This document shows positions 8,283 to 63,997 of a stretch of 64,000 nt of DNA, piece after piece (within the stretch, counting starts at the first letter, position 1; each line of letters begins with the position of its first letter). The position numbers and the translations under genes were made by a program. The stretch comes from Candidatus Saccharimonadota bacterium (GTDB lineage: Bacteria; Patescibacteriota; Saccharimonadia; Saccharimonadales; UBA10212). The notes below the pieces were generated by a model. That model had not been told where the DNA came from, ran no database searches, and saw nothing but the letters and a program-made list of their open reading frames with translations. The stretch spans positions 835-64,834 of the forward strand of contig JACPKF010000007.1 of assembly GCA_016187125.1 (NCBI GenBank), read 5' to 3'.

Positions 8283-8291
8283 CTTGTTGTA

Positions 8292-8333
8292 AGTACCCCA
8301 CTTTTGGTCCGATCGGACCAAAAGTGGGGTACT
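8292..8333. terminator. bidirectional hairpin terminator, perfect 42-nt palindrome centred on CCGATCGG
   Basis: agtaccccacttttggtccga|tcggaccaaaagtggggtact lies between convergent genes. A sister palindrome is at 25249-25288. Confidence 0.7.
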
Positions 8334-8346
8334 TTAGTATCTTAAT

Positions 8347-9063: not shown

Positions 9064-10881
9064 ATGGATGCGGTGAGCGAAGTAAAATCTAGACTGAATA
9101 TTGAAGACGTGATTTCAGAGTACGTCCAACTGAAGCGAGCCGGGCGAAACTTTAAAGGCTTGAGCCCCTGGACCAATGAAAAAACGCCGAGTTTTATAGT
9201 TAGTCCGGAAAAGCAAATCTGGCATGATTTTTCCTCTAGTCGGGGCGGCGACATGTTTAGCTTTGTTATGGAAATGGAAGGTCTTGATTTTCGCGGTGCG
9301 CTGGAGCATTTAGCCAGGAAAGCCGGAATAGATCTAGAACAATTCCAAAGCTCAACAGCCGGTGCCAATAGCAAGTTTAAGGCTCGGGTTAGTGAAGCTT
9401 TAAGCTTGGCTGCCAAATTTTATCAAAAGCAGCTAACAGTTAATTACGCGGCTCTTTCATATCTGTTGAGTGTTAGAAAATTTAGTAAAAAAACGCTGCT
9501 TGATTGGCAGTTGGGCTATAGTCCTAATACCAGCCGCGGGCTGACCGATTTTTTATCTAAAAAGGGCTTTGAAGCTAGTGAACTGAAAGCCGCTGGACTA
9601 ATTACACAACGCCGCGATGGTAGTAACGCTGATATGTTCCGTGGACGGATAATGATCCCGCTGTGCGACAGCCGCGGCAATGTAATTGGCTTTACAGCCC
9701 GGTTTTTAGAAACCAGCCTTTCGCCAGCTGGCGAAGCCCCCAAATATATTAATACGCCCAGTACCCCGCTTTATGATAAAAGCCGTCATGTATTCGGACT
9801 GCATTTGGCCAAAGAAACTACCCGCAAGGCCGGTTTTGTGGTGGTGGTCGAAGGCAATATGGACGTTATTGCTTCTCATCAAGCCGGCGTGACTAACGTT
9901 GTAGCTACTGCCGGTACAGCCATGACCACGCAGCATCTGCGTGAGCTTAAACGTTTTACAGGTGATATTCGTCTATGTTTTGATTCCGATCAAGCCGGCA
10001 TCACAGCTACCGAGCGGGTTATACCGTTGGCTCAAAAAGTTGGCGTAAACTTAAACATTGTTAGCATAGATTCCAAAGACGGTAAAGACGCTGATGAACT
10101 GGTTCAAAAAGACCCGCAGCTATGGCAAAAAGCTATCAAACAAGCCAAGTATGCGCCGGATTGGTTAATCGAACACTACAAAGATTCTCTGGATCTGTCT
10201 TCGGCGCAGGGCAAGCGGGCTTTTACCGACGCGCTGCTAGTGACTATCAGACGCTTGAGCGACCCGGTAGAGAAAGAACACTACCTAAAAACTATCGCCG
10301 AAGCCACTAACACTAGCCTAGAGGCGATTAAGTCAAAATTGAGTGCCAGTGTTTCAGACGACTCGTTCGTGCCAAGAAGAAAAGTAGCGCCTCAGTCTCA
10401 GATTTTGGATCAAAGCGCCGTAGAATACCAAAGACTGCAGGATCATTTTTTAGCCAATGTGCTTATGCAACCTAAATTACGCGACTTACTGGATAATCTT
10501 AAGCCTGAGTATTTTAGCGAGGGCCCAGCCCGAACCACTTTTAAGTTCCTAGAGAAATATCCTGACTTTAAAGGGTTAAAAAAGGCCGCCTCGCCCGCCA
10601 ATCCGTCCAAGGCGGATCAGGAGAGCAAGGAGTTGCAGGAGATTGCTGATTATGTTAAAATTATATCATTACAGTTTGAGGAGCTCTATCAAGATCTGAG
10701 CCTGGAAGATTTAAGAATTCAGGCAGCTAGTCTCAAGAAACGCTTAATAGAGCGCTACGTAAAAAGCCAAAAGAGGCAAATTTCAGTTGCCATGCAAACA
10801 GAGGTTGATGAAAAGAAGCTGCAGGGGCTTATCCAAAAAGTTGATCAACTTAACAAACTGATCAACCCGCCCAAAAAATGA
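9064..10881 (+). CDS. dnaG: DNA primase
   Basis: Zn-ribbon region (KGLSPWTNEKTPSFIVSPEKQIWHDFSS) plus TOPRIM (VVVVEGNMDVIASHQAG...DSDQAG). The start was set at the ATG at 9064 rather than the ORF-track start. Confidence 0.9.
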   Translation: MDAVSEVKSRLNIEDVISEYVQLKRAGRNFKGLSPWTNEKTPSFIVSPEKQIWHDFSSSRGGDMFSFVMEMEGLDFRGALEHLARKAGIDLEQFQSSTAGANSKFKARVSEALSLAAKFYQKQLTVNYAALSYLLSVRKFSKKTLLDWQLGYSPNTSRGLTDFLSKKGFEASELKAAGLITQRRDGSNADMFRGRIMIPLCDSRGNVIGFTARFLETSLSPAGEAPKYINTPSTPLYDKSRHVFGLHLAKETTRKAGFVVVVEGNMDVIASHQAGVTNVVATAGTAMTTQHLRELKRFTGDIRLCFDSDQAGITATERVIPLAQKVGVNLNIVSIDSKDGKDADELVQKDPQLWQKAIKQAKYAPDWLIEHYKDSLDLSSAQGKRAFTDALLVTIRRLSDPVEKEHYLKTIAEATNTSLEAIKSKLSASVSDDSFVPRRKVAPQSQILDQSAVEYQRLQDHFLANVLMQPKLRDLLDNLKPEYFSEGPARTTFKFLEKYPDFKGLKKAASPANPSKADQESKELQEIADYVKIISLQFEELYQDLSLEDLRIQAASLKKRLIERYVKSQKRQISVAMQTEVDEKKLQGLIQKVDQLNKLINPPKK

Positions 10882-12776: not shown

Positions 12777-12791
12777 TTAACAGATCAAATT

Positions 12792-12829
12792 ATAGGAATA
12801 AATTCAGCGATCGCTGAATTTATTCCTAT
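12792..12829. terminator. perfect 38-nt palindrome centred on GCGATCGC, likely terminator
   Basis: ataggaataaattcagcga|tcgctgaatttattcctat lies 16 nt after the kinase stop. Confidence 0.6.
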
Positions 12830-13979: not shown

Positions 13980-14077
13980 AGCATCTCCTTATGATGTACT
14001 TGGTATCTACAAACCCAGACAAACCTACCCCAGCGAGTAAGAGCAGTTTTTTACGACCTACATAAACCATTCTAATA

Positions 14078-14107
14078 TTCTTAAGAATAATAGAATAGGA
14101 ATAATTA
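14078..14107. repeat. copy of the ttctaatattcttaagaatattagaa palindrome family (imperfect)
   Basis: cattctaatattcttaagaataatagaata lies about 45 nt upstream of ORF 14153. Other copies are at 48498-48523, 48780-48807 and 51421-51452. Confidence 0.7.
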
Positions 14108-18339: not shown

Positions 18340-18545
18340 ATATCTTCCATTTTGTTTCGGCAAAACGGAAGCCAAAAACCGACGGACATTCGAAAACACT
18401 ATCGAATTTACTAACGCTGTCTGCCGCGCCAAAACAACGCAAGCGGTCCCTCACTTTCTAGGGCAGAGGTTCGGGATTGAGTTTCGGCTGGACTCGCCAG
18501 CCAGCTACCAAATTCATCGGTTTTCTCGAGTCCGGAGACAGAAAG
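18340..18545 (+). repeat. copy C of the A/B/C/D/E structured repeat family
   Basis: ctgccgcgccaaaacaacgcaagcggtccctc ... gagtttcggctggactcgccagccagctaccaaattcatcggttttctcgagtccgg aligns with copies A and B. Confidence 0.65.
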
Positions 18546-18659
18546 ATTCTTTTGTTAGGACGGTTTAACACTAAATCCAGAGAAGATAATCTCTTCGATC
18601 TCTCAGGGTATAATTTGATTAAGGAGCCAGGTATAAATAACGACTTCATTTTGCCGGAA

Positions 18660-19646
18660 ATGCGATCAAGATTTTCTGAAATCCGTTTGGGATTTGAACA
18701 ACTTAAGATTATTGGCCTAGAAACTGGCGATCGTTTTTTTGAAACATATGGCCCAGGTAATTTAATTGAAGGAATGGATCGTCCATACGAAAGATTTCAC
18801 GACTACGAGCTGCTGCTAGTAATTATTCAGGGTATTGACCCAGATAAATACCTGCACATACATAAAGGTACACCTTTTTACTTTTTGGCTTGGTTGGCAT
18901 TTGCAATCAGGGATTACGAAAAGGCGGTATTTTATATGGACTCTGCGCTATCGGAAGACAAAAGAAAAAGCCCAACTGAGCAATTTTCTTCTTGGATACA
19001 AAACCCTGCTGGCAAATTTTTCTGCCTTAATCCAAAAGATCACACTGCGAGGATCATTACACAGCAGTTAAAGGACATACTAGAAAGTCAGTTTACGAGA
19101 TTCAATACAATTTCTAACTTGCCCACTCTGCTTAATGTTGATAGTTGGGTAGGAAATTTCGTACATCCTATGATAAAGGCGGAGAAGTTTCCTTTCGTAA
19201 CTTCAATTTATAGCTATCTTTTAGAGTTTAAAGACCGGCACCAGATGTTAAACCTCAAACCATTACTTGATGGATCTACCGAACCATATACAGTGCATCT
19301 TTTTAAGGGAGGTTTAATATTTGAATCTCTAATGAAACACTATTACGAATCTAGAGCCAAAAAACTCAGTGAATGCCTAAAGAATGAAGATTTTAAAAGG
19401 GACTTCTCTTTGAAATTAGTTGATACTTCAGCTAACAGCCTACGAGAAATACTTGATAAGATTATTGATAATACTGCAGCAACTAGCTTCAATACAACAT
19501 CAAAGCTTCGAAATACTACGGGGCACAAGCTAGTCTGGGATAAAGTCTTTAATCTGCCAGAAAACTACCAGAAACTGTTTGAGCAAGAACTTAACGCAAT
19601 TTTTTTCGTTATCGGGAAGCAAATTGAGAAAGGCCTAGCTATATAA
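18660..19646 (+). CDS. hypothetical protein with a C-terminal HEPN-like RNxxxH motif (AbiD/Abi_2-like signature)
   Basis: KLRNTTGHKLVWD resembles the hRNxxAHHxxLWN signature of Abi_2 HEPN proteins. The start is uncertain: the ORF extends to 18477 but overlaps repeat C. Confidence 0.45.
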   Translation: MRSRFSEIRLGFEQLKIIGLETGDRFFETYGPGNLIEGMDRPYERFHDYELLLVIIQGIDPDKYLHIHKGTPFYFLAWLAFAIRDYEKAVFYMDSALSEDKRKSPTEQFSSWIQNPAGKFFCLNPKDHTARIITQQLKDILESQFTRFNTISNLPTLLNVDSWVGNFVHPMIKAEKFPFVTSIYSYLLEFKDRHQMLNLKPLLDGSTEPYTVHLFKGGLIFESLMKHYYESRAKKLSECLKNEDFKRDFSLKLVDTSANSLREILDKIIDNTAATSFNTTSKLRNTTGHKLVWDKVFNLPENYQKLFEQELNAIFFVIGKQIEKGLAI

Positions 19647-25248: not shown

Positions 25249-25288
25249 TTACCCCAAAAAGTGTCCGATCGGACACTTTTTGGGGTAA
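25249..25288. terminator. bidirectional hairpin terminator, perfect 40-nt palindrome centred on CCGATCGG
   Basis: ttaccccaaaaagtgtccga|tcggacactttttggggtaa lies between convergent genes. Confidence 0.7.
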
Positions 25289-26683: not shown

Positions 26684-27796
26684 ATGCCTGAGCTTCCTGA
26701 AGTTGAGATTATAAAACAAGGCTTATCTAAACTATTGCCCGGGCGGATTATTGCCGACGTTTGGCACAACTGGCAAAAATCTTTTCCGAACGCGCCAGCG
26801 GATGTGGCCCGATTTTTGGTGGATGCCAAGATCATATCAGTTAAACGTCGGGCCAAAGTCTTGATAATTGAACTTTCCAGCGGCTACTCGCTGGTTGTCC
26901 ATTTAAAAATGACAGGGCAACTAGTTTTTGTGCCAAAAACCAGCGAGCAAAAAGCCCGCCTTCGCCAAAGCTACGGTCGACAGGCAAAAAGCAAAAAGCA
27001 AAAAGCCGAAAAAAAGTTTGGTGGTGGGCATCCGACCAAAAGCTTAATAGGTAAGCTGCCGGACAAATCAACCCGAGTCATTGTTGAGTTTTACCCCCCG
27101 AAAGGCGCGCGGGACATACGCTTGAGTACGTTGCAAGGAAAAGTTGAGCAACGGACTAAGCCGTATATGAAATACGGTGAAGGAGTAGCGCAGACTTTGA
27201 CACAGCAAAGTGCCAAGAGTGTCGCCGGAGTGCCAGGGCGACAGCCCGAGCAGCAGGGCGACACGGCGCATGGTCCGCGACTTTTTTTTAATGATCAGCG
27301 TAAGTTTGGCTGGATGCGCCTGCTGCCGACGGTTGAGGTGCCCCAGATTGACTTTATGAAAAAAGTCGGCCCGGAGCCGCTGGAAGATAATTTTACGGTT
27401 GGTGTGTTTATTGAAAGACTCAACCGCCGAAAAAACAGCTCGATAAAAGCTATGCTGCTGGATCAAACCGTGCTGGCTGGAGTGGGGAATATCTATGCTG
27501 ACGAATCCTTATTTGCCGCTAAAATCCATCCAGCTACCCCGGTTTTTAAAGTTTCTAAAGCAAAATTAGTAATGCTCCATAATGCCCTGCGCCAAATACT
27601 GCAGCAGGCAATAGATAAAGGCGGCAGCACGGACCGAAATTACGTTGATGTCAAAGGTAAAAAGGGGAGTTATCTGAACTTTGCCCAGGTTTTTAGAAGA
27701 CAAGGCCAAGTGTGTTCCCGCTGCGGAGGCGTCATACAGAAGATACGCGTAGCTGGAAGAGGTACTCACATATGTCCAAGGTGTCAAAAACGTTAA
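26684..27796 (+). CDS. mutM: formamidopyrimidine-DNA glycosylase with a ~62-aa internal insert
   Basis: N-terminal MPELPEVE, H2TH (GVGNIYADESLF) and a C-terminal zinc finger (CSRCGG...CPRCQ). It is 370 aa against about 270-290 aa for typical Fpg. Confidence 0.88.
   Translation: MPELPEVEIIKQGLSKLLPGRIIADVWHNWQKSFPNAPADVARFLVDAKIISVKRRAKVLIIELSSGYSLVVHLKMTGQLVFVPKTSEQKARLRQSYGRQAKSKKQKAEKKFGGGHPTKSLIGKLPDKSTRVIVEFYPPKGARDIRLSTLQGKVEQRTKPYMKYGEGVAQTLTQQSAKSVAGVPGRQPEQQGDTAHGPRLFFNDQRKFGWMRLLPTVEVPQIDFMKKVGPEPLEDNFTVGVFIERLNRRKNSSIKAMLLDQTVLAGVGNIYADESLFAAKIHPATPVFKVSKAKLVMLHNALRQILQQAIDKGGSTDRNYVDVKGKKGSYLNFAQVFRRQGQVCSRCGGVIQKIRVAGRGTHICPRCQKR
27092..27277 (+). repeat. in-frame translated insertion element (family F3) inside fpg
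   Basis: The core gagtacgttgcaagg...ccgtatatgaaatacggtgaaggagtagcgcag aligns with 37493-37583 in the UDG gene. Contains hairpins ccgtatatgaaatacgg and gtcgccggagtgccagggcgac. Confidence 0.75.
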
Positions 27797-29682: not shown

Positions 29683-29917
29683 AGTCGGAAGACCTACTTT
29701 GTAAAGTAGGCAAACATTTCGCAACCTTTAACCGTAAAGGTTGCGCCAAACTCCCGGGCGCAGTAAAAACCAGATTGAATATGCCTCAACGGCGACTGCC
29801 GCGCCGAAACAACGACAAGCGGTCTCGTTCGTTAAACATCGGAGGAACGAGACAAAGTTTCGGTTTTACCCGCCAGCCACCTAGCAAATTCATCTGTTTT
29901 CACTGATGCCCGGACCC
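29683..29917 (+). repeat. copy B (most compact) of the A/B/C/D/E structured repeat family
   Basis: Hairpins cctactttgtaaagtagg, gcaacctttaaccgtaaaggttgc and gtctcgttc...gaacgagac. It ends with aattcatctgttttcactgatgcccggaccc. Confidence 0.7.
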
Positions 29918-36992: not shown

Positions 36993-37859
36993 ATGACCAA
37001 ACAAGAAGAACTTGCAAAAATTAAGGCTGATATTGTGAAGCAAAAAATTTGCCCAGACCTGGCCGCCGGTGCCACGCAACTGGTTTTTGGCGATGGTGAT
37101 CCGGACGCCGAGCTAGTCTTTATTGGTGAAGCGCCCGGTAAAAACGAAGATGAGCAAGGTCTGCCATTTGTCGGCGCGGCCGGTAAGTTTTTAAATGAGA
37201 TGCTAGCACTTATAGGGCTAAAACGTGAGGACGTATACATTACCAACATTGTTAAATATCGCCCGCCGGAAAATCGTGACCCATTGCCTGATGAAAAAAC
37301 GGTCTTTTTGCCGTTTTTGCATGCTCAGCTGGCAGTGATTAAGCCCAAAATTGTGGTAACGCTAGGCCGTCACAGCATGGAGTGCTTTTTGCCGGATCTG
37401 AAAATTAGTGTCTGTCACGGCCAAGCCAAAAGGATCAGAGTGGAGAATGGAGAGGGCAGAGTGAAGAAAGTCGTGGCAGGTGGCCAAGTGGCGAGTACGA
37501 TGCAAGGCGCAGGCGAGCAGCGGACTGAAACGTATGGAAAATACGGTGAAGGAGCAGCGCAGCCTGCAACACAGCAGCGTGCCGCAAGTGACAACAGTGT
37601 CGGTGGCTCTGCCGACGACCAGGTTGTTACGTCCTTGGTCATCCTGCCGTTGTTTCATCCGGCGGCGGCCTTATATAACGGCGGAATGCGCCAAACATTA
37701 ATAGACGATTTTATGAAGATACCGCGTATTTTAGCTAAACTTGAGCAGACGCCTAACTCTTTTGATAAACAAAAAACGCGGGAGGTGCAAGTTTCTGTCG
37801 TGTCTCAGCCAGAAGTTAAAAAAGCTGGCCCGAGCCAACTTCAATTAGGTATTAAGTGA
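36993..37859 (+). CDS. family-4 uracil-DNA glycosylase with a ~65-aa internal insert
   Basis: GEAPGKNEDEQGLPFVGAAGKFL and HPAAALYN are family-4 UDG motifs. It is 288 aa against about 190-210 aa typical. Confidence 0.85.
   Translation: MTKQEELAKIKADIVKQKICPDLAAGATQLVFGDGDPDAELVFIGEAPGKNEDEQGLPFVGAAGKFLNEMLALIGLKREDVYITNIVKYRPPENRDPLPDEKTVFLPFLHAQLAVIKPKIVVTLGRHSMECFLPDLKISVCHGQAKRIRVENGEGRVKKVVAGGQVASTMQGAGEQRTETYGKYGEGAAQPATQQRAASDNSVGGSADDQVVTSLVILPLFHPAAALYNGGMRQTLIDDFMKIPRILAKLEQTPNSFDKQKTREVQVSVVSQPEVKKAGPSQLQLGIK
37436..37638 (+). repeat. in-frame translated insertion element (family F3) inside the UDG gene
   Basis: gagtacgatgcaaggcgcaggcgagcagcggactgaaacgtatggaaaatacggtgaaggagcagcgcag is homologous to the fpg insert. 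The peptide is QGAGEQRTETYGKYGEGAAQ. Confidence 0.75.
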
Positions 37860-37863
37860 TGAA

Positions 37864-38059
37864 CCCATCTCACACCTCCACTCCAGCTTCGGAAACTTTG
37901 TGCGGCCTACAACAAGCATACCGCTCGCCCGGCCTTCGTAGCCAAGGCCACTTCGGCGGAGTAGGCTCACCATACCTTACAGGTATGCTTCCTCACCTGA
38001 TGCTTGTTTCGTCTACACCTAAAGGTTTCTCACTTAACAGACTGGAGATATGAAATGGG
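37864..38059. other. ~196-nt rod-like structured element (long imperfect terminal inverted repeats); ncRNA or MITE
   Basis: The 5' cccatctcacacctccactccagcttcggaaactttgtg pairs with the 3' cacctaaaggtttctc...gactggagatatgaaatggg. The internal module cgcccggccttcgtagccaaggccacttcggcggag recurs inverted at ~45940-45975. Confidence 0.5.
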
Positions 38060-38098
38060 CTCAATGAAAACTAAATTTAACAGGAAGGAAAATCATCA

Positions 38099-40186
38099 AT
38101 GGATGACAAAGCAAAAAATCTAGACAGTCAACCATCCAATCAGCCAAATAGTAGAACCGCGCCCGGTCGTAACTTGGTTACTTCAACCGGCCGAAATGTC
38201 TCTAGAGGGGCGGCCATCCGGGCCCAAAAACAAGCGGTTAACGATGCTAATCGGGTAGCTAGTCAATATCTTGATGCAGCCAATAAACATCCGCTGGCTA
38301 GCGGAGACCGGCCAAGACGTGCCAACGTTATTGATGATAATCCGCGGCTAAAAATTATTGGCTTGGGTGGCATGGATGGTGGCGGTTCTAAAAATATGCT
38401 GGTGATCGAATACCAAAATGATGCAATTGTGATTGATTGCGGCAATGATCTAGGCGTTGATCTGCCAGGCATTAACTACGGTATCGCTGATACGACTTAC
38501 CTCGATCAAATAAAAAATAAGCTAAGAGGTTTTGTCATAACCCATGGGCATCTGGACCACATGGGCGGCCTACCTCACATTTTACCCAAATATAACGTGC
38601 CGGTTTATGGCGGCCGTTTTACCATCGGACGGGTGGAGGAAATCTTTCAAAACTTTGGCCTGCCAATGCCCAAGGGCTTTGAGCTTAAAACTGTCATCAT
38701 GAACGAAACAACCCACGAACGTCTTAAAATTGGCGTGTTTTTCGTGGAATTGGTGCGAGTAACCCATGCCATCCCAGGCAGCACCATGGTAGTGGTTGAT
38801 ACACCGGTGGGTAGAATTATAAATACCGGTGACTTTCGCCTAGATCCCAATCCTTTGGATCACGAAAGAACGGATACGGCACGCATTGAGGAACTGTCTC
38901 GTGAAAATGTGCTGCTACTGATGAGCGAAAGTACTACCACCGAAACCCTTGGCCGTACGCTATCGGAAAGCCAAATCGAGAAAAGCTTTATAGACATTAT
39001 GGACCAGGCGCCCGGACGGATTTTCGTGGCTATTTTCTCGACCAATGTCAATCGCATCCAGATGATAGTTAACGCTGCTGTGCACCACGGGCGTAAAGTG
39101 GCGATTGATGGACGCAGCATGATTAGCACGCTGGAAATGGCCGTAAAAAACGGCTTTATGAAGATTCCCAAGGGTACATTTGTACCGATAGCTTCAGTGT
39201 CTAATCTCAAAGATGATCAAGTTGTGGTAGTCAGTACTGGAGCCCAAGGCGAACCGAACTCGGCGCTTCAACGCATGAGTACGGGGGATCATAAATACGT
39301 TGCATTAAAAGAACAAGACACCGTCATTCTGTCTAGCCGGGCTATTCCGTACACCGGCAATGACGCCTTAATACGCTCTATGGTTGATGAGCTCTTTAAA
39401 AAAGGAGTACACGTTTTTCGTCACGAAACCTACGAGCTGGACGGCGGTGGGCCACTGCACGTTTCCGGGCACGGCGGTCAAGAAGAATATCGGGATATGA
39501 TTAAAATGGTCAAACCAAAATTCTTTTTGCCCATTTACGGCGACTATACCGCCAAAAAATACCATATAGATATTGCTTTGGAGGAGGGAATTCCGCGGGT
39601 CAATACACTGAACGTTGACAACGGCCAAGTCATAACGCTTGCTAAAGACAAAATGCAGCTTGGTGGCGAGGTGCCGCATGGCACCATCTTGGTAGATCAA
39701 ACCGGGGCTGTGGTTAGCACGGTGGTGGTTAAAGACCGGGTCCTACTGGCCGAAGAGGGCGTAGTGGCGGTGGTGCTGACTATCGACAAAAAAACCGGCC
39801 AGCTTCTAACTAGCCCAGATATAATCAGCCGCGGCTTTATCTACATGAAAGAGAATGAAGAGCTAATGAATGCTTTTCGCGCCGAACTGCGCCGAGCGGT
39901 TAGCCAGCGCTTTAAGCGGGTTGATCTGGACCGCTTTAAGGCCGAGCTAAAAGACTACGTCACCCACTTTTTGTACGAGCAAACCCAACGCAGCCCAATT
40001 GTCATCCCAGTAGTTAACGTTATTGGCGGCCGGGCAGAAAAAGCCAATAATAATCTGCACGGTGCCGGCCAAGTTGCGCCCAGCGGTGAAACTCCCAAGA
40101 CGCCTGAAGAGATTGCTTTAGAACAGCAGCGCCGATTTGCACAGATGAGGCAACGACTGCTCAACCAAGACGCCCGTGTGGACTAA
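38099..40186 (+). CDS. rnj: ribonuclease J
   Basis: Metallo-beta-lactamase HGHLDHMGG, beta-CASP layout and the conserved HVSGHGGQEE. There is a ~90-aa polar N-terminal extension. Confidence 0.9.
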   Translation: MDDKAKNLDSQPSNQPNSRTAPGRNLVTSTGRNVSRGAAIRAQKQAVNDANRVASQYLDAANKHPLASGDRPRRANVIDDNPRLKIIGLGGMDGGGSKNMLVIEYQNDAIVIDCGNDLGVDLPGINYGIADTTYLDQIKNKLRGFVITHGHLDHMGGLPHILPKYNVPVYGGRFTIGRVEEIFQNFGLPMPKGFELKTVIMNETTHERLKIGVFFVELVRVTHAIPGSTMVVVDTPVGRIINTGDFRLDPNPLDHERTDTARIEELSRENVLLLMSESTTTETLGRTLSESQIEKSFIDIMDQAPGRIFVAIFSTNVNRIQMIVNAAVHHGRKVAIDGRSMISTLEMAVKNGFMKIPKGTFVPIASVSNLKDDQVVVVSTGAQGEPNSALQRMSTGDHKYVALKEQDTVILSSRAIPYTGNDALIRSMVDELFKKGVHVFRHETYELDGGGPLHVSGHGGQEEYRDMIKMVKPKFFLPIYGDYTAKKYHIDIALEEGIPRVNTLNVDNGQVITLAKDKMQLGGEVPHGTILVDQTGAVVSTVVVKDRVLLAEEGVVAVVLTIDKKTGQLLTSPDIISRGFIYMKENEELMNAFRAELRRAVSQRFKRVDLDRFKAELKDYVTHFLYEQTQRSPIVIPVVNVIGGRAEKANNNLHGAGQVAPSGETPKTPEEIALEQQRRFAQMRQRLLNQDARVD

Positions 40187-41595: not shown

Positions 41596-41645
41596 TCTCA
41601 ATCCGAGGTCCGAGACTTACTTCATAATAGATAACAGATCAAGAT

Positions 41646-41683
41646 ATGAGAATAGATTCAGCGTTCGCTGAATCTATTCTCAT
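41646..41683. terminator. palindromic hairpin atgagaatagattcagcg-tt-cgctgaatctattctcat
   Basis: An 18-bp stem 50 nt after the last rnj-end copy. It has the same termini as the element at 1561-1661. Confidence 0.6.
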
Positions 41684-41780
41684 ACTCTTTGTCCACCTGC
41701 AGAACCTAGTTATCGACGCGTCGAGTAAGTTAACTGCAAGGGAAGAGAATATTTAATTAGTTAAGTACTTAATGATTTAC

Positions 41781-45828: not shown

Positions 45829-46488
45829 ATGAGTGCACGAGCAACGCAGACTGGTGCAATACAAGGCGCGGGTGAGGAGCGCAACGAAGATGTACAAAAT
45901 GGTACATCGAGTAAGCACCGCAGCCCGCAAGCCGACTCCGCCGAAGTAGCTTCGGCTACGAAGGCCGGGCGCACTAATGCGTCTGAAAGCGCTAGCAGAA
46001 TCGGCGGCTCAGCCAGTGAGCAGTACAGTGCGGTGCGTGGGTCGGTGAATCAATATGAGATTGCGGTGTTATACCATCCGGATCTGGAAATTGATCTGGG
46101 AAAAGCCTCTGCTAAGGTAGAACAGATCATCGCTACCAGCGGGGGTAAAATTACCAAAACTGACAATTGGGGCAAGCGCAAGCTGGCTTATCCCATTAAG
46201 AAAAATGACTTTGCGGTGTATGTTTTTTACGATGTGGCAATGGAACCATCAGGCGTAGCCAAAATCGAGCAAACTTTTAATATAACCGATGAGATTATCC
46301 GTTTTTTGATAACCCGGCCGGATTTTAAAGCCAAAGCCAAAGCCGAAGCTCTGGCCAAAGAAAAGGCTAAGAAAGCTGCCGAGAGAAGCGAAAAAGATGA
46401 CGAAGATAAGGACGACGAGCGAGAGACTGAAAAACCTCGTCGTAGTAGAATAATAGCTAAGAACTTGGGACTAGGGACTAAGGACTAA
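45829..46488 (+). CDS. rpsF: 30S ribosomal protein S6 with a repeat-derived 72-aa N-terminal extension (alternative start GTG 46045)
   Basis: The S6 core is YEIAVLYHPDLE...KTDNWGKRKLAYPIKK. A strong SD aaaggagg serves the ATG at 45829. The conventional S6 N-terminus begins at 46045. Confidence 0.85.
   Translation: MSARATQTGAIQGAGEERNEDVQNGTSSKHRSPQADSAEVASATKAGRTNASESASRIGGSASEQYSAVRGSVNQYEIAVLYHPDLEIDLGKASAKVEQIIATSGGKITKTDNWGKRKLAYPIKKNDFAVYVFYDVAMEPSGVAKIEQTFNITDEIIRFLITRPDFKAKAKAEALAKEKAKKAAERSEKDDEDKDDERETEKPRRSRIIAKNLGLGTKD
45832..46044 (+). repeat. F3-related insertion immediately after the rpsF start codon, in frame
   Basis: atacaaggcgcgggtgaggagcgcaacgaagatgtacaaaatggtacatc parallels the fpg/UDG insert core (peptide QGAGEER). 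It also carries the ctccgccgaagtagcttcggctacgaaggccgggcg module. Confidence 0.65.
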
Positions 46489-48497: not shown

Positions 48498-48523
48498 TTC
48501 TAATATTCTTAAGAATATTAGAA
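48498..48523. repeat. perfect 26-nt palindrome ttctaatattctt|aagaatattagaa just upstream of the HTH gene
   Basis: It ends 7 nt before the ATG at 48531 and belongs to the 4-copy palindrome family. Confidence 0.8.
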
Positions 48524-48530
48524 TGTAACT

Positions 48531-48809
48531 ATGAAAACTATCTATTCTTCTCAAGATCTAGCAGATATTTTAAAAGGGGGAGCCAATCATCACAGAATTA
48601 ATATCCTTTTTTTGCTTGATAAGCGAGGCAAGCTAACACTCGACGAAGTTGCTGAGGCATTAAGGGCAAATTATAAAACTATTGCTGTCCACCTTAGCCG
48701 CCTACATAAAAGTGGGCTGGTTACCAAGCGCTATAAAGCTTCAGCTGTCGAGCATGATTTAACACCACGTGCTCGCCATATTCTAAATTTCTTAAGAATA
48801 TTAGAATGA
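48531..48809 (+). CDS. small winged-helix (ArsR-like) DNA-binding protein
   Basis: A 92-aa protein with HHRINILFLLDKRGKLTLDEVAEALRANYKTIAVHLSRLHKSGLV, an HTH pattern. The gene is bracketed by two copies of the palindrome. Confidence 0.6.
   Translation: MKTIYSSQDLADILKGGANHHRINILFLLDKRGKLTLDEVAEALRANYKTIAVHLSRLHKSGLVTKRYKASAVEHDLTPRARHILNFLRILE
48780..48807. repeat. imperfect copy of the palindrome spanning the HTH gene stop and the tlyA start
   Basis: attctaaatttcttaagaatattagaat encodes ILNFLRILE* and contains the tlyA ATG (48806). Confidence 0.75.
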
Positions 48810-50884: not shown

Positions 50885-52021
50885 CTAGACATTGAAACGG
50901 AATTCGACTACGTCGTCGGGTTGCATAATGTAGTCTTTACCCTCGGTGCGCACCTTGCCAGCGGCCCGGGCGCCCGCTACTGAACCGGCAGTAATTAAAT
51001 CCTGGTAATTTATGACTTGAGCGGCGATGAAACCTCTCTGAAAGTCGGAATGAATAACCCCTGCGGCTTGTGGGGCAGTGGACCCTTTGCTAATTGTCCA
51101 GGCCCGAACTTCTTTTTCGCCGGCGGTCAAGAAACTCTGCAAGCCCAAAACACCATATGCGGCATGAATTAACTGAATTAGCCCACTCTCATTTTGTCCA
51201 TAACTGGCAAGGAGTTCCTGACGGTCAGTTTCGTCAAGTCCCCGTAGCTCACTTTCTAATTTTGCGCAAATAAATACGGCTTTTGCGGGCGCAATTAGAT
51301 CTGTTAATTCCTTTTGCAGGGATTGTCCCTGCAAACTGGCTTCGTCGATGTTAAACACGTAAATTACTGGCTTAGCAGTTAGCAGCTGGAGTTCGTCCAA
51401 GAAAACTGACTGGTCCTTATCCATTCTAATATTCTTAAGAATATTAGAATGGGACAGGGAAGAGTTGGTTTGTAGGTGGGTATTGATAGAATTTAGGGCG
51501 TCGAGTTGAGGTTTTAGTTTTGGGTTGGCTTTAGTTTCTTTTTCCAAACGGGGCAGGCGTTTATCAACCGTTTGCAGGTCGGCAAGTACCAGTTCGGTAT
51601 TTATTATTTCTATATCCTCCGACGCTCCGACCACTAAGTCGGAAGTCGGAGCCCCGATCGAAGCGTCGGGGTTTTTCACGCGGGCTACATTTGGATCATC
51701 AAAGGCTCTTACTACGTGGCAAATGGCATTTGCTTGTCTAATGTGGGATAAAAATTGGTTGCCCAAACCCTCGCCTTGGCTGGCGCCAGCGACTAAACCG
51801 GCAATATCTACAAATGTCACCGTGGCTGGCACGATTTTTTCGGTTTTATAAATCTCGGCCAGTTTTTGCAAGCGCGAGTCGGGAATCGGCACGATGCCGG
51901 TATTTGGCTCAATGGTCGCAAAAGGGTAATTAGCAATCAGGGCATTAGCGTCTGTCAACGCATTAAACAGCGTAGACTTACCGACATTGGGGAGGCCAAT
52001 AATTCCAATACTAAGACTCAA
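50885..52021 (-). CDS. ychF: redox-regulated ATPase YchF
   Basis: GIIGLPNVGKSTLFNALT, the TGS domain and the C-terminal DDVVEFRFNV. It carries a palindrome insert at 51421-51452. Confidence 0.95.
   Translation of the reverse strand: MSLSIGIIGLPNVGKSTLFNALTDANALIANYPFATIEPNTGIVPIPDSRLQKLAEIYKTEKIVPATVTFVDIAGLVAGASQGEGLGNQFLSHIRQANAICHVVRAFDDPNVARVKNPDASIGAPTSDLVVGASEDIEIINTELVLADLQTVDKRLPRLEKETKANPKLKPQLDALNSINTHLQTNSSLSHSNILKNIRMDKDQSVFLDELQLLTAKPVIYVFNIDEASLQGQSLQKELTDLIAPAKAVFICAKLESELRGLDETDRQELLASYGQNESGLIQLIHAAYGVLGLQSFLTAGEKEVRAWTISKGSTAPQAAGVIHSDFQRGFIAAQVINYQDLITAGSVAGARAAGKVRTEGKDYIMQPDDVVEFRFNV
51421..51452. repeat. perfect 32-nt palindrome ccattctaatattctt|aagaatattagaatgg inside the ychF CDS
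   Basis: It is translated on the minus strand as SHSNILKNIRMD in the helical insertion domain and belongs to the same family as the 48.5-kb copies. Confidence 0.85.
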
Positions 52022-57680: not shown

Positions 57681-58721
57681 ATGCATATACTAGGTGGGAC
57701 GTCGGACTTCTTTGGCTTAGACATGGGAGTCAGCGCAGTTAGGGTAGTGCAACTCAAAGGAACAGGACCCACTAAGACGCTGGATCGCTACGGGCAGACG
57801 CCTATCACTGGCACTGTGGCTCTGAGTGACTCTAAGGCCGACCGCCAAAGGATCGCCCAGGTGATCCATGAGTTAACGACGCGGGTAGGTATATCAACTA
57901 AAAATGTGGCGGCTAATTTACCCTCTAGCCGGGTGTTTACGACAGTTATTGATATAGATCGTCTACCGCCTGAAGAGCTTGCCAAGACCATAAGCTATCA
58001 AGCCGAGTCGTATATTCCGACTCCCTTGTCTCAGTCTAAAATTGACTGGGCAATTATTGGTAACTCGCCTAAAGACCCTGGCAAAATTGAACTCCTGCTA
58101 TCTAGTGTGCCCAATGATTTCATCGAAAGGCGGCTCGAGATATTGGAATCCATAGGTCTCAATGTAGTGGCTTTTGAGCCTGATAACATGGCTCTAGTGC
58201 GAGCTATTACTTCACCTGATACGGCTGCTCCTTGGCTAATACTTGATATTGGCAATGCTGCGACGGATTTGGTAGTTGTAGTTGGCGGTATGCCACACTT
58301 GGCTCGTTCTATTCCTATGGGTCAGCAAGCTTTTGTCCGGGCAGCTATTCAAGGTTTGGGAGTTGATCCTTCTCAGGCGGAGCAGTTTGTGTTTAAGTTT
58401 GGCCTGTCTCGCGACAAGCTAGAAGGCCAGGTCTATGACGCCATAATTGGGACTATTGACGGTCTGGTGGCGGAGATCGAAAAATCTATTAAATTCTTTG
58501 GCGAGCGCTACAGAGGCGCCAAGTTGGAGGGGATAGTTGTAACTGGTGGCGCTTCGACATTACCTGAACTGCCGCTTTATCTGGCTAATAAATTTAACTT
58601 GAATGTCGAAATTGGCAACGCTTGGCGGAATGTTAATGTGCCAACCGAACGGCAAAACGAGGTGCTGGCGGTTTCTAACCACTTTGCCGTAGCCGTAGGC
58701 CTGGCGGAGAGAGAGACATGA
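57681..58721 (+). CDS. pilM: type IV pilus assembly protein PilM
   Basis: Actin-like ATPase fold: FGLDMGVSAVRVVQLKG ... LDIGNAATDLVVV ... VVTGGAS. Confidence 0.85.
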   Translation: MHILGGTSDFFGLDMGVSAVRVVQLKGTGPTKTLDRYGQTPITGTVALSDSKADRQRIAQVIHELTTRVGISTKNVAANLPSSRVFTTVIDIDRLPPEELAKTISYQAESYIPTPLSQSKIDWAIIGNSPKDPGKIELLLSSVPNDFIERRLEILESIGLNVVAFEPDNMALVRAITSPDTAAPWLILDIGNAATDLVVVVGGMPHLARSIPMGQQAFVRAAIQGLGVDPSQAEQFVFKFGLSRDKLEGQVYDAIIGTIDGLVAEIEKSIKFFGERYRGAKLEGIVVTGGASTLPELPLYLANKFNLNVEIGNAWRNVNVPTERQNEVLAVSNHFAVAVGLAERET

Positions 58722-58844
58722 CTACGTCATTCCCGTTCACCGTTCACCGTGCACCGTTCACCGTTAATACATGGTCAACGGTCAATGGCAAATGTAAGGT
58801 AAATGGTAGATGGCTAATTGTAAATGCCTCCGAAGGAGGATCTT
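58722..58844 (+). repeat. pilM-pilN spacer: (ttcaccg)n / (cggtaaa-like)n heptad hairpin plus an SD-sequestering hairpin
   Basis: tcccgttcaccgttcaccgtgcaccgttcaccgtta ... caacggtcaatggcaaatgtaaggtaaatggtagatgg, then cctcc-gaa-ggagg (58827-58839). It is homologous to 63863-63997. Confidence 0.75.
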
Positions 58845-63862: not shown

Positions 63863-63997
63863 AGTCGTGACTGCGTCACTCCCGTTCACCGTTCACTGTT
63901 CACCGTTCACCATTAAGGCACGGGTAATAGTTAACGGTAAATGCACGGTAAATGGTAAAAGGCTAATGGTAAATGTGGCTTCGAAGGGAGCCGTCTG
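63863..63997 (+). repeat. spacer after pilT, paralogous to the pilM-pilN spacer
   Basis: tcccgttcaccgttcactgttcaccgttcaccatta ... ttaacggtaaatgcacggtaaatggtaaaagg, then ggcttc-gaag-ggagcc (63977-63992) sequestering the SD before the ATG at 63998. Confidence 0.75.

Follow-up and report, generated by a model that had tools for sequence, protein, structure and literature searches.

The Rickettsia palindromic elements (RPE-1 to RPE-10; Ogata et al., 2000) are described as interspersed hairpin repeats of 100 to 150 or more nt that lie both between and inside genes (PMC10969869, PMC1779305). RPEs insert in frame in unrelated housekeeping genes, the host open reading frame (ORF) survives with a conserved extra peptide, and RPE-7 in PheT is an old insertion common to a whole clade; they are generally portrayed as multiplying and later decaying (PMC10969869, PMC1779305). 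By analogy, they are the closest counterpart of the element found here in a uracil-DNA glycosylase (UDG) gene of Saccharibacteria, in the sense that the two may work alike; homology is not claimed, nor is it to be expected between the two phyla. The likeness includes a small-genome bacterium, interspersed hairpins at intergenic and intragenic sites, in-frame insertion, the lack of an associated transposase, and old insertions spanning a clade (RPE-7 in PheT and the UDG copy described here). The element is multicopy, self-complementary, both intergenic and intragenic with preservation of frame, and inserted at loops or surfaces, and so meets all the criteria for an RPE-like class. Compared with RPEs, it belongs to an unrelated phylum, folds into a three-way junction and not into one palindrome, keeps its fold by compensation at a fixed site, and has one copy that is read in a second frame; the family looks old yet structurally intact.

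Other short non-autonomous repeats, including Correia/NEMIS, ERIC, RUP, and the Coxiella QMITE1/2, give transcripts with stable stem-loops, and RNA-folding MITEs of this kind form occasional in-frame fusions, with some affecting mRNA stability or yielding sRNAs (PMC10969869, PMC5896051). The Saccharibacteria element resembles them as a short non-autonomous repeat with stem-loop transcripts and in-frame fusions. REP/REPIN sequences lie outside genes, have a unit of 20 to 40 nt (about 100 nt for doublets) with a conserved GTAG or CGTC foot, and are accompanied by a RAYT gene. Background on REP sequences is available (PMC3733652). The element is comparable to REP/REPINs in being strand-specific, long-kept, multicopy, vertically inherited, and plausibly recognized as single-stranded nucleic acid. 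It differs in that extragenic siting, the GTAG/CGTC foot, and RAYT were not found for it and in that it enters coding regions. A REP/REPIN-RAYT identity was rejected on the basis of the copies in coding regions, the unit length of about 172 nt, and the absence of a Y1 transposase from the sequence examined, which does not amount to whole genomes. The double-hairpin elements of fungal mitochondrial DNA (Allomyces and chytrids) are small and mobile; each is built from two neighboring hairpins, and they occupy intergenic sites as well as in-frame positions in coding regions. The adjacent hairpins and the combination of intergenic and in-frame coding sites are common to both families, but double-hairpin elements are organellar and much shorter, and, to our knowledge, no report describes a closing helix or deep covariation in them. 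A search of the literature on Saccharibacteria together with MITEs or palindromic repeats found nothing relevant.

The host gene (36993 to 37859) lies within the 64,000-nt stretch that was analyzed, referred to here as the window; all coordinates are positions in it, on the + strand. It is an intact ORF of 288 aa, assigned from the ORF list, Pfam, PDB, and AlphaFold as a family-4-type UDG. The protein matches PF03167 (UDG) in Pfam with an E value of 3e-34, and its best relatives in the PDB are the family-4 UDGs 4zbx, 1l9g, 1vk2, and 1ui0 (192 to 205 aa; E values of 3e-44 to 2e-33). Residues G45-E-A-P-G49 and H222-P-A-A-A are invariant in the alignment with relatives. Judged from these comparisons, the criteria for a family-4 UDG are met: a UDG-superfamily fold, the GE(A)PG motif, the C-terminal HPS/HPAAA motif, and closest solved relatives in family 4. 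Enzymes of this family have four Cys ligands for a [4Fe-4S] cluster, an N-terminal CxxC among them; the CKKC of 4zbx corresponds to QKIC in the window UDG, with Gln at the first Cys, and only the CxxC was mapped, not the other ligands.

The original prediction of an oversized UDG with an extra block between HGQAKRI and LPLFHPAAA is borne out. The alignment and loop lengths place a protein-level insert of 69 aa at residues 149 to 217 (37437 to 37643), between HGQAKRI, which ends at I148, and LPLFHPAAA, which starts at L218. The alignment to 4zbx falls into two blocks that flank it (residues 5 to 132 and 214 to 246). Insert-less relatives have 5 to 9 residues at the same site, according to the alignment and the loop-length spectrum over 80 metagenomic UDGs, and the net gain is about 60 to 64 aa. 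The excess of 288 aa over a typical length of about 200 aa cannot all be assigned to the insert, because a C-terminal extension of about 37 aa is also present in the insert-less relatives P0006 and P0007. AlphaFold models the core with confidence (pLDDT, 80 to 96) and gives insert residues 158 to 209 a pLDDT of <50 between strands 146 to 151 and 212 to 220; the insert is probably a disordered loop joining two beta-strands in this model. Since an independent Logan assembly contains an identical UDG protein (P0001) and homologous UDG inserts are present across many other independent assemblies, an assembly artifact is unlikely.

In-frame insertion into conserved DNA metabolism enzymes is also a property of mini-inteins. 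However, the insert here is 60 to 69 aa with no HINT domain or splice-junction residues, noncoding copies exist, and selection acts on the nucleic acid. An intein was rejected on these copies, on length (69 aa compared with about 130 aa or more for HINT), and on Pfam, which recognizes only the UDG.

The UDG insert was originally proposed to belong to the same element family as an insert in fpg, with an approximately 90-nt core about three-quarters identical between the two. The cores match at 78.0% over 91 ungapped nt (37493 to 37583 and 27124 to 27214; E value of 9e-14 within the window), which is far above chance, and a longer local alignment joins 37493 to 37640 with 27124 to 27275. Both copies are read in the same frame. 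The Fpg copy (27108 to 27279, from the covariance model [CM] and MFE fold) lies in frame in the ORF at 26684 to 27796, in the turn between ...STRVIVEF and LFFNDQRKFGW. It scores 142 bits with the CM (core, 27119 to 27270) and has an MFE of -77.4 kcal/mol. Filled Fpg sites are 171 to 174 nt longer than empty ones, insert lengths are always multiples of 3, and the insertion point is the beta-turn IDFTDGS|KLFFND. A third, degenerate copy (45848 to 45976, from the CM and nhmmer) falls within a 72-aa N-terminal extension of ribosomal protein S6 (ORF 45829 to 46488); it scores 44.8 bits (E value of 2e-8; nhmmer E value of 3e-8), and the Pfam S6 domain begins at residue 75. The CM built from copies thus detects the UDG and Fpg inserts as well as the S6 N terminus, and the single-family interpretation is supported by these sequence matches more strongly than when it was first proposed. 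A matching downstream hairpin with compensatory change had also been described. Compensatory change in this hairpin (P2) is real and extensive; the two stems named were mis-registered and are not homologous, in that the gtcgg...ccgac of UDG is the inner stem of P2 and the gtcgcc...ggcgac of Fpg is the outer stem.

In UDG, the structured element is about 172 nt long (37476 to 37647) and forms a three-way junction in both the MFE fold and the 20-copy consensus; the single-sequence MFE is -79.5 kcal/mol (z, -3.3), with the consensus topology. It is preceded by a 5' linker (RVENGEGRVKKVV; 37437 to 37475) that, from the DNA alignment and MFE fold, lies outside the conserved fold and is missing from loci L001 and L002. 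The closing helix, P0, pairs its 5' arm (GCAGGTGGCCAAGTG; 37476 to 37490) with its 3' arm (CCTTGGTCATCCTGC; 37633 to 37647), as supported by the fold and by covariation at all 11 consensus pairs in the 20-copy alignment. Within the fold, P1 is an irregular rod hairpin of about 95 nt (37491 to 37585; apical stem, 37531 to 37545) with conserved purine-rich internal loops (CAAGG, GAGCAGCGGACUGA, and GAAGGAGCAGCGCAG), and P2 is a two-step hairpin of about 43 nt (37588 to 37630) with an outer stem GTGACAAC/GTTGTTAC, an inner stem GTCGG/CCGAC, and the tip GGCUCUGCC. Double changes are found at all 8 outer and all 5 inner pairs of P2. The 3' arm of P0 overlaps the S-L-V-I-L codons of the host beta-strand ahead of PLFHP, and across other UDG copies these codons change in step with the 5' arm (GCAGG/CCTGC, GTAGG/CCTAC, and CAGAAGATGATAG/CTATCATTCTTCTG). 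Conserved unpaired nucleotides are almost absent from the junction.

The fold is conserved far beyond the primary sequence. Among 12 copies, 94.6% of positions in the helices are paired, and double changes affect 37 of 46 pairs, compared with 17.9 ± 2.4 when shuffled and 6 to 13 when slid. For the 20 copies with P0, 92.4% of cells are paired, 53 of 57 pairs have compensatory changes, and double-change cells number 305 versus 84. G.U outnumbers A.C among copies by 96 to 21, and one strand therefore carries the fold; copies antisense to neighboring genes are skewed likewise (14 to 1). At the shared UDG site, 34 of 46 pairs are compensated among eight copies, compared with 16.2 ± 2.6, which indicates that the fold is maintained in place. 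The three-way junction is under strong structural selection, such that the nucleic acid fold is conserved and the peptide is not.

Several of these features would be expected if the element were primarily a functional structured RNA, with a role in protein binding, as a stable sRNA, or in transcript fate, and if its coding copies were in dual use rather than tolerated junk. Same-site UDG copies keep the fold by compensation that involves host synonymous sites; copies within one genome are old (41 to 69% identical, with no near-identical copies found), yet each retains about 40 to 45 of the 46 pairs; G.U strongly exceeds A.C; and purine-rich internal loops (CAAGG, GAGCAGCGGAC, GAAGGAGCAG, and GGAG/GCAG) are invariant across copies whose helices vary freely, which is a signature of functional RNA. 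However, Rfam 15 at the gathering threshold gave no match to the element anywhere in the window, intergenic copies occur in both orientations without an obvious promoter or terminator, the UDG copy has been lost or eroded in many lineages that retain the gene, and the sequence names no function. We consider this reading rather unlikely.

Translation of the insert is inferred from the preservation of frame and the avoidance of stop codons, and there is no direct observation of it. All 16 copies that the CM alignment places in genes (10 UDG, 4 Fpg, RNase J, PilM, and S6) can be read through in the host frame, and stops interrupt the canonical frame in 11 of 13 intergenic copies. This pattern bears on the possibility that the element is an intervening sequence, removed from the RNA by self-splicing or processing or else skipped by the ribosome, which would leave mature UDG without the loop. 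Such sequences are known from the rRNA genes of CPR bacteria, and the compact, RNA-like fold, with a closing helix that brings both host junctions together, would suit this role. Removal from the mRNA would nevertheless make it unnecessary to keep the frame, and all genic copies do so without stops, with length differences in multiples of 3 and compensated internal indels. Furthermore, the junction has almost no conserved unpaired nucleotides, and Rfam searches at E values of ≤10 gave no match on 37400 to 37700, to group I/II introns and self-cleaving ribozymes included, and nothing credible on 37840 to 38110. An intervening sequence is therefore very unlikely. No tRNA or tmRNA was found by scanning. 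Intron, ribozyme, hammerhead, SRP-like, 5S-like, DGR template-repeat, and intein readings were dropped as a group because no model matches, a junction core is lacking, and the frame is preserved throughout, and also because differences between copies are compensatory and not adenine specific.

The peptide itself is not conserved. In the UDG genes of L001 and L002, indels of +2 and +1 replace YGEGA with TAKEQ, after which the frame is restored, and the Fpg copy of locus L094 is in a different reading frame with the fold intact. A peptide-conserved module, such as a disordered DNA repair linker or interaction motif gained by both proteins, would account for the fact that both hosts are DNA glycosylases and for a peptide motif that is recognizable in many proteins (MQGAGEQRTE.Y..YGEG..Q..TQQ). 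It would not account for intergenic copies that contain stops and keep the fold, for base-pair covariation, which peptide selection cannot explain, for compensated frameshifts that alter the peptide and not the nucleotides, or for the Fpg copy in an alternative frame. The region is also predicted to be disordered, and the element is present in such unrelated hosts as FolD, DHFR, MsrA, NrdR, and PilM. This explanation has next to no chance of being correct and is effectively refuted already by the intergenic and frame-shifted copies.

The element is widely dispersed. CM R1 detects 29 copies in 283 kb of the window and related loci, with 3 in the 64-kb window, 4 in 17.5 kb of L097, and 3 in 13.8 kb of L003. 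In addition to UDG, Fpg, and S6, the CM places copies in RNase J and PilM and at >12 intergenic sites in related Saccharibacteria loci, in both orientations relative to neighboring genes. An exhaustive search of representative proteins with a peptide profile matched 119 proteins, about 80 of which are "hypothetical proteins" of 45 to 70 aa that consist of just the element. The matches include about 15 further unrelated protein families; among the larger ones, Pfam identifies RluA-type synthase, TsaD/B, methylases, MetK, Y-family polymerase, PrmC, FolD, Ogt, DHFR, MsrA, NrdR, Dus, a GTPase, and GATase. In S6, RNase J, MetK, and PilM, the element is within N-terminal extensions. On the evidence of these searches, it resides inside at least 20 unrelated Saccharibacteria genes and also between genes; a restriction to a few orthologous sites without intergenic copies is already contradicted. 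A strict degenerate pattern found 9 loci in genome contigs, one of them a chance gammaproteobacterial match, and a word-index protein search with the insert-peptide alignment found only 5 small ORFs. Metagenomic UDG relatives are mostly insert-less (CM matches in 3 of 80 loci), and no copy was found in the viral contigs searched.

The UDG copy is old and common to many Saccharibacteria rather than the product of a recent event. The hosts that have it in common show just 70 to 84% identity in their UDG proteins. At the DNA level, the window and L003 genomes are only 70 to 80% identical. Orthologous UDG copies are 66% alike, compared with 58% for UDG-Fpg pairs. Concerted evolution within a genome was rejected, given that same-site copies across genomes are on average more alike than UDG-Fpg pairs. 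The Fpg copy of L094 is an exception to same-site likeness and groups with an intergenic copy of L094. Insert-less UDGs are nested among insert-bearing ones, and the UDGs P0070 and P0113 have short insert remnants; the history of loss versus gain was judged from an NJ tree without bootstrap, built on about 185 residues.

The case for mobility is an inference that rests on distribution alone. An active classical MITE with TIRs, a DDE transposase elsewhere in the genome, and a recent insertion in UDG would likewise be short, noncoding by itself, dispersed, hairpin forming, and inverted-complementary at its ends, as P0 is. However, MITEs are marked by conserved TIRs, duplicated target sites, and a parental IS, and the Saccharibacteria element has a variable terminal helix, with no duplication or IS seen. 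The P0 arms are complementary within a copy and differ in sequence in every copy, so that the requirement for shared conserved TIRs is not met and the arms cannot be a common transposase binding site. Neither is that for flanking target-site duplications: no direct repeat of >5 nt was found at any of 20 copies, although the copies are old and decay is possible. No transposase, integrase, or reverse transcriptase was found among the 47 window ORFs or among the called genes of eight loci (L001 to L003 and L093 to L097), about 280 kb in all and not whole genomes. With within-genome identity never >69% and a UDG copy common to such divergent hosts, an active MITE is extremely unlikely.

We favor, as the likely explanation, that the UDG insert is an old in-frame copy of a short non-autonomous interspersed element, a translated passenger with a selected fold; its translation and mobility are inferences, and family membership, the fold, dispersal, strand specificity, frame preservation, and covariation in place are direct observations. 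An ancestor of a large Saccharibacteria clade would have gained the copy in a surface beta-hairpin turn of UDG that links the HG...KR and (V)ILPLFHP strands, after which it would have been inherited vertically and eroded or deleted in some lineages. The Gly/Ala/Gln/Ser-rich loop, probably disordered, would be translated and tolerated by UDG. Because the copy sits inside an essential-looking ORF, only stop-free, frame-keeping versions would survive; the peptide would be a passenger, with selection acting on the nucleic acid fold via compensatory substitutions, even at the same site. Spread is inferred to have occurred by transposition-like copying, by an unknown mechanism. Within the transcript, the fold is inferred to act as RNA, its most likely role being that of a protein-binding, stability, or processing module like REP/ERIC/Correia hairpins; action in transient single-stranded DNA remains possible. 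A role in host mRNA cannot be general, because five of about 12 intergenic copies are antisense to their neighbors.

Long-term upkeep of the fold at a fixed site would not be expected of a decaying selfish insert and points to an unnamed function. It is possible, and we suggest only tentatively, that the element represents an undescribed class of functional structured RNA, a three-way junction of about 172 nt with invariant purine-rich loops that is active at each of about 40 to 50 genomic sites and dual-coded in at least 20 housekeeping genes, with ORF and fold selected together. Suggested roles for such a class are a protein-binding, processing, or stability module or a source of stable small RNA.

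The genomes of Saccharibacteria (TM7, CPR) are tiny and leave little DNA to spare; even so, they contain dozens of copies of this strongly structured element, many of them in essential genes. The element accounts for a set of puzzling loops and N-terminal extensions that are lineage specific in CPR proteins, in which gene callers and structure predictors treat element-derived segments as protein features. It is a candidate new RNA class, with a covariance model ready for genome-wide annotation, and provides a clean natural case in which RNA or single-stranded DNA structure and an overlapping reading frame are selected together, pairing with host codons included. The phenomenon of "selfish DNA in protein-coding genes" described for Rickettsia is extended to an unrelated reduced-genome lineage, which suggests a general route to new protein segments in small genomes.

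The window (G+C content, ~46%) carries genes for ArgRS, DnaG, sigma-70, PolA, Fpg, PNPase, UDG, RNase J, FtsK, S6-SSB, EF-P, and the type IV pilus, a set typical of Saccharibacteria (TM7), and the closest relatives of its UDG are labeled Saccharibacteria or Saccharimonadales. The UDG open reading frame (36993 to 37859, plus strand; Pfam PF03167, E = 3e-34) encodes 288 amino acids (aa), compared with 192 to 205 aa in family-4 UDGs of solved structure, which align to it as two pieces flanking residues ~133 to 213. The original prediction that the protein is overlong between HGQAKRI and LPLFHPAAA is thus borne out, and the insert there (37437 to 37643, plus strand; residues 149 to 217) is real, although ~37 aa of the excess is instead a C-terminal extension. 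That extension (~37743 to 37856; EQTPNSFDKQ...LQLGIK) has low AlphaFold confidence, is common to the insert-less relatives P0006 and P0007, and takes a diverged form in the relatives P0003, P0013, and P0080. At residues ~17 to 21 (37041 to 37055), QKIC lies opposite the N-terminal CxxC of the family-4 UDG 4zbx, and one presumed Fe-S ligand therefore appears to be absent, as it likewise does from most Saccharibacteria relatives.

A ~90-nt core had been judged by eye to be about three-quarters identical to the Fpg insert; the measured value is 78% over 91 ungapped nt (UDG, 37493 to 37583; Fpg, 27124 to 27214; E = 9e-14 within the window), and both cores share one reading frame. Copies of the element (37476 to 37647 in UDG) were sought with an HMM and then with a covariance model (R1) built from element copies. 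R1 matches the UDG insert (154 bits), the Fpg insert (142 bits), and, in degenerate form, the N-terminal extension of S6 (45 bits), and the window still gives these three copies with the speed filters off. The interpretation of the UDG insert as a translated copy of the element family present in Fpg is supported.

Among related loci, which were obtained via UDG homologs and a DNA pattern, R1 places the element at the identical UDG position in nine more loci and at the identical Fpg position in three (L003, L012, and L094). It also locates copies within the N-terminal parts of RNase J (L013) and PilM (L097) and at 13 intergenic sites. Its distribution is mosaic: L003 carries it in Fpg and has an insert-less UDG, and the converse is true of L001 and L002. 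When the copy by which each locus was reached is excluded, ~12 further copies occur in ~218 kb, which extrapolates very roughly to ~40 to 50 per genome. A profile of the two window insert peptides had 119 matches among 1.84 billion representative proteins, ~80 of them open reading frames of 45 to 70 aa made up solely of element. By Pfam, the larger matches are an RluA-type pseudouridine synthase, TsaD/B, DNA methylases, MetK, a Y-family polymerase, PrmC (n = 3), FolD, Ogt (n = 2), DHFR, MsrA, PilM, NrdR, Dus, a GTPase, and GATase. No copy was found in the viral contigs searched.

RNAalifold consensus folds of MAFFT alignments of 7, 12, and 20 copies gave an identical architecture, a three-way junction of ~172 nt in which a closing helix (P0) joins an irregular rod of ~95 nt (P1) and a two-step hairpin of ~43 nt (P2). 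The window UDG copy alone reproduces this consensus (minimum free energy, -79.5 kcal/mol; z = -3.3). The hairpins likened to each other in the original prediction are not equivalent, as that of UDG is the inner and that of Fpg the outer P2 stem. For P1 and P2 in 12 copies, 94.6% of cells are paired (shuffled, 77.3%) and 37 of 46 pairs show double changes (shuffled, 17.9 ± 2.4; slid controls, 6 to 13). With P0 included, 20 copies give 92.4% (shuffled, 67.4%) and 53 of 57 pairs (shuffled, 35.3; slid controls, 26 to 32), with 305 double-change cells versus 84 in shuffles. The helices are free to vary in sequence, unlike the internal loops (CAAGG, GAGCAGCGGACUGA, GAAGGAGCAGCGCAG, and GGAG/GCAG), which, like the tip (GGCUCUGCC), are almost unchanged between copies. 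G.U pairs outnumber A.C mismatches (96 versus 21), also in copies antisense to adjoining genes (14 to 1). Selection therefore acts on a fold of the element's own strand, in the form of RNA or single-stranded DNA, and not on a double-stranded palindrome. The element is dispersed, strand specific, and structured. The main rival to a repeat, a genuine class of functional RNA put to use wherever it occurs, is a reading that we hold to be possible though rather unlikely, or somewhat less unlikely when framed as a previously undescribed class; no Rfam match to the element was found (window; 37400 to 37700).

Other repeats and structures were also noted. Between UDG and RNase J lies a 213-nt spacer (stop to start, 37858 to 38070) whose minus strand folds, with a G.U-rich closing helix of ~21 bp, to -90.9 kcal/mol (z = -6.3). 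It lacks an Rfam match and is possibly either a small RNA gene or a structured element of a second kind. The corresponding spacer in L001 is too short for the structure. A 42-nt segment of the window spacer (37926 to 37967, minus strand), containing the hairpin GCCGAAGTAGCTTCGGC, recurs with 90% identity in opposite orientation (45930 to 45971, plus strand) inside the S6 N-terminal extension (45829 to 46045; 72 aa), and the extension thus resembles a composite drawn from two families of repeats. Upstream of it is a strong Shine-Dalgarno sequence (AAAGGAGG); S6 relatives begin at the equivalent of GTG 46046, and the extension may be either translated or a 5' untranslated region. Another repeat family is an intergenic pair adjoining type IV pilus genes (63868 to 63987 and 58719 to 58836; 80% identity over 120 nt), each member a hairpin with arms of tandem heptads (GTTCACC/GGTAAAT). 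A 114-nt pair (29788 to 29901 and 18413 to 18525; 75% identity) has a strong internal hairpin in each member, one of which overlaps the start of the open reading frame at 18477 to 19646. The AT-rich near-perfect palindrome TTCTAATATTCTTAAGAATATTAGAA, intergenic at four places (14067 to 14100, 48498 to 48525, 48780 to 48808, and 51421 to 51452), looks like an operator or bidirectional terminator. Perfect or near-perfect palindromes of 38 to 50 nt centered on CGATCG or CGTTCG lie at 8291 to 8334, 25249 to 25288, 12792 to 12829, and 41641 to 41689, and the regions 12778 to 12825 and 41632 to 41679 are 85% alike. Small 23S_rRNA_IVP/bAvd genes and a GIY-YIG gene (L003, 2879 to 3238; L093, 17932 to 18333; L001, 3057 to 3350) occupy variable positions in the otherwise syntenic Fpg-to-S6 region, and no tie to the element was found in these three loci.

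At the fixed UDG site, the eight copies alone have 91.3% of cells paired (shuffled, 72.8%) and double changes in 34 of 46 pairs (shuffled, 16.2 ± 2.6; slid controls, 7 to 11). The P0 3' arm here is formed by codons of the host beta-strand S-L-V-I-L preceding PLFHP, and the 5' arm covaries with them: the arms are GCAGGTGGCCAAG/CTTGGTCATCCTGC in the window, GTAGG/CCTAC in L002, with a partner change that is synonymous (Leu), and CAGAAGATGATAG/CTATCATTCTTCTG in L096. Mean identity is 66% between UDG copies versus 58% between UDG and Fpg copies, and copies of one genome are only 41 to 69% identical, which indicates an old family with no recent burst and no homogenization by conversion. Despite this age, each copy retains ~40 to 45 of 46 pairs. 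The UDG copy is an old, in-frame one whose structure has been maintained.

In the covariance model alignment, the host frame is open in all 16 genic copies. Stops interrupt the canonical frame in 11 of 13 intergenic copies, and all three sense frames in most. Filled Fpg sites exceed empty ones by 171, 171, 174, or 153 nt, each a multiple of 3. Removal of the element from the mRNA fits poorly and is very unlikely; translation of the insert is inferred from the preservation of frame and the absence of stops, with the peptide as a passenger. In the UDG genes of L001 and L002, indels of +2 (P1 tip) and +1 (following GAGCAG) turn YGEGAxQ into TAKEQxQ and then bring back the original frame. The Fpg copy of L094 (415 to 563) uses another frame from end to end; its canonical frame contains three stops, and it keeps 41 Watson-Crick and 3 G.U of 46 pairs. 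The peptide is not conserved, and a module acting at the protein level fits poorly, to the point that we give it almost no credence. In an AlphaFold model (26-sequence alignment), the UDG core is confident and residues 158 to 209, between strands 146 to 151 and 212 to 220, have pLDDT below 50, a predicted disordered loop on a beta-hairpin; the Fpg copy is likewise located in a beta-turn.

The L094 Fpg copy, whose frame differs from that of every other genic copy, groups with an intergenic copy of the same locus, suggesting that this beta-turn was the site of a re-insertion or a conversion. The L095 UDG copy (10487 to 10692) has a 57-nt nested insertion in the P1 5' arm, with a small hairpin of its own, that adds 19 aa (TDMSSSDQARQSQAMAEVT). 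Fpg residues ~84 to 112 (~26933 to 27019) form a second, Lys-rich loop expansion (PKTSEQKARLRQSYGRQAKSKKQKAEKK) unrelated to the element, where relatives have GKKR and L012 has a different expansion.

Across 80 metagenomic relatives, loop lengths at the UDG site are 24, 28, 33 to 37, 41 to 49, or 88 residues, and P0070 and P0113 keep the element flanks with the middle deleted. A neighbor-joining tree of host-only columns nests the insert-less "KRYKGQVYLPLF" group among insert-bearing sequences and pairs the window UDG with the insert-less P0006. From these sequences, we read a single old gain followed by erosion and deletion, although the tree has little strength and more than one gain remains possible.

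The nearest analog is the Rickettsia palindromic element (RPE), a family of interspersed 100- to 150-bp repeats that occupy intergenic sites and also sit in frame within many housekeeping genes, with some insertions older than the genus (PMC10969869, PMC1779305). The present element differs in its unrelated phylum, its three-way junction, its covariation at a fixed site with host codons included, and its use of a second reading frame. REP/REPIN-RAYT systems, folding MITEs (Correia, ERIC, and QMITE), and mitochondrial double-hairpin elements have some traits in common with it but mismatch in location, termini, duplications, or partner genes. No target duplication, conserved termini, or near-identical copies were found among the element copies, and neither a transposase nor a reverse transcriptase was found in the 47 window open reading frames or in eight annotated related loci; an active classical MITE fits poorly and is highly improbable. 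No literature tying Saccharibacteria to such repeats was found. We consider it probable that the element is an RPE-like nonautonomous repeat, which would have spread by copying, that selection sees its fold, most probably as RNA, and that the UDG loop is its tolerated translation. The analysis yields a covariance model ready for use, accounts for many "protein insertions" and small hypothetical open reading frames of CPR bacteria, and provides a clear example of overlapping selection on fold and reading frame.
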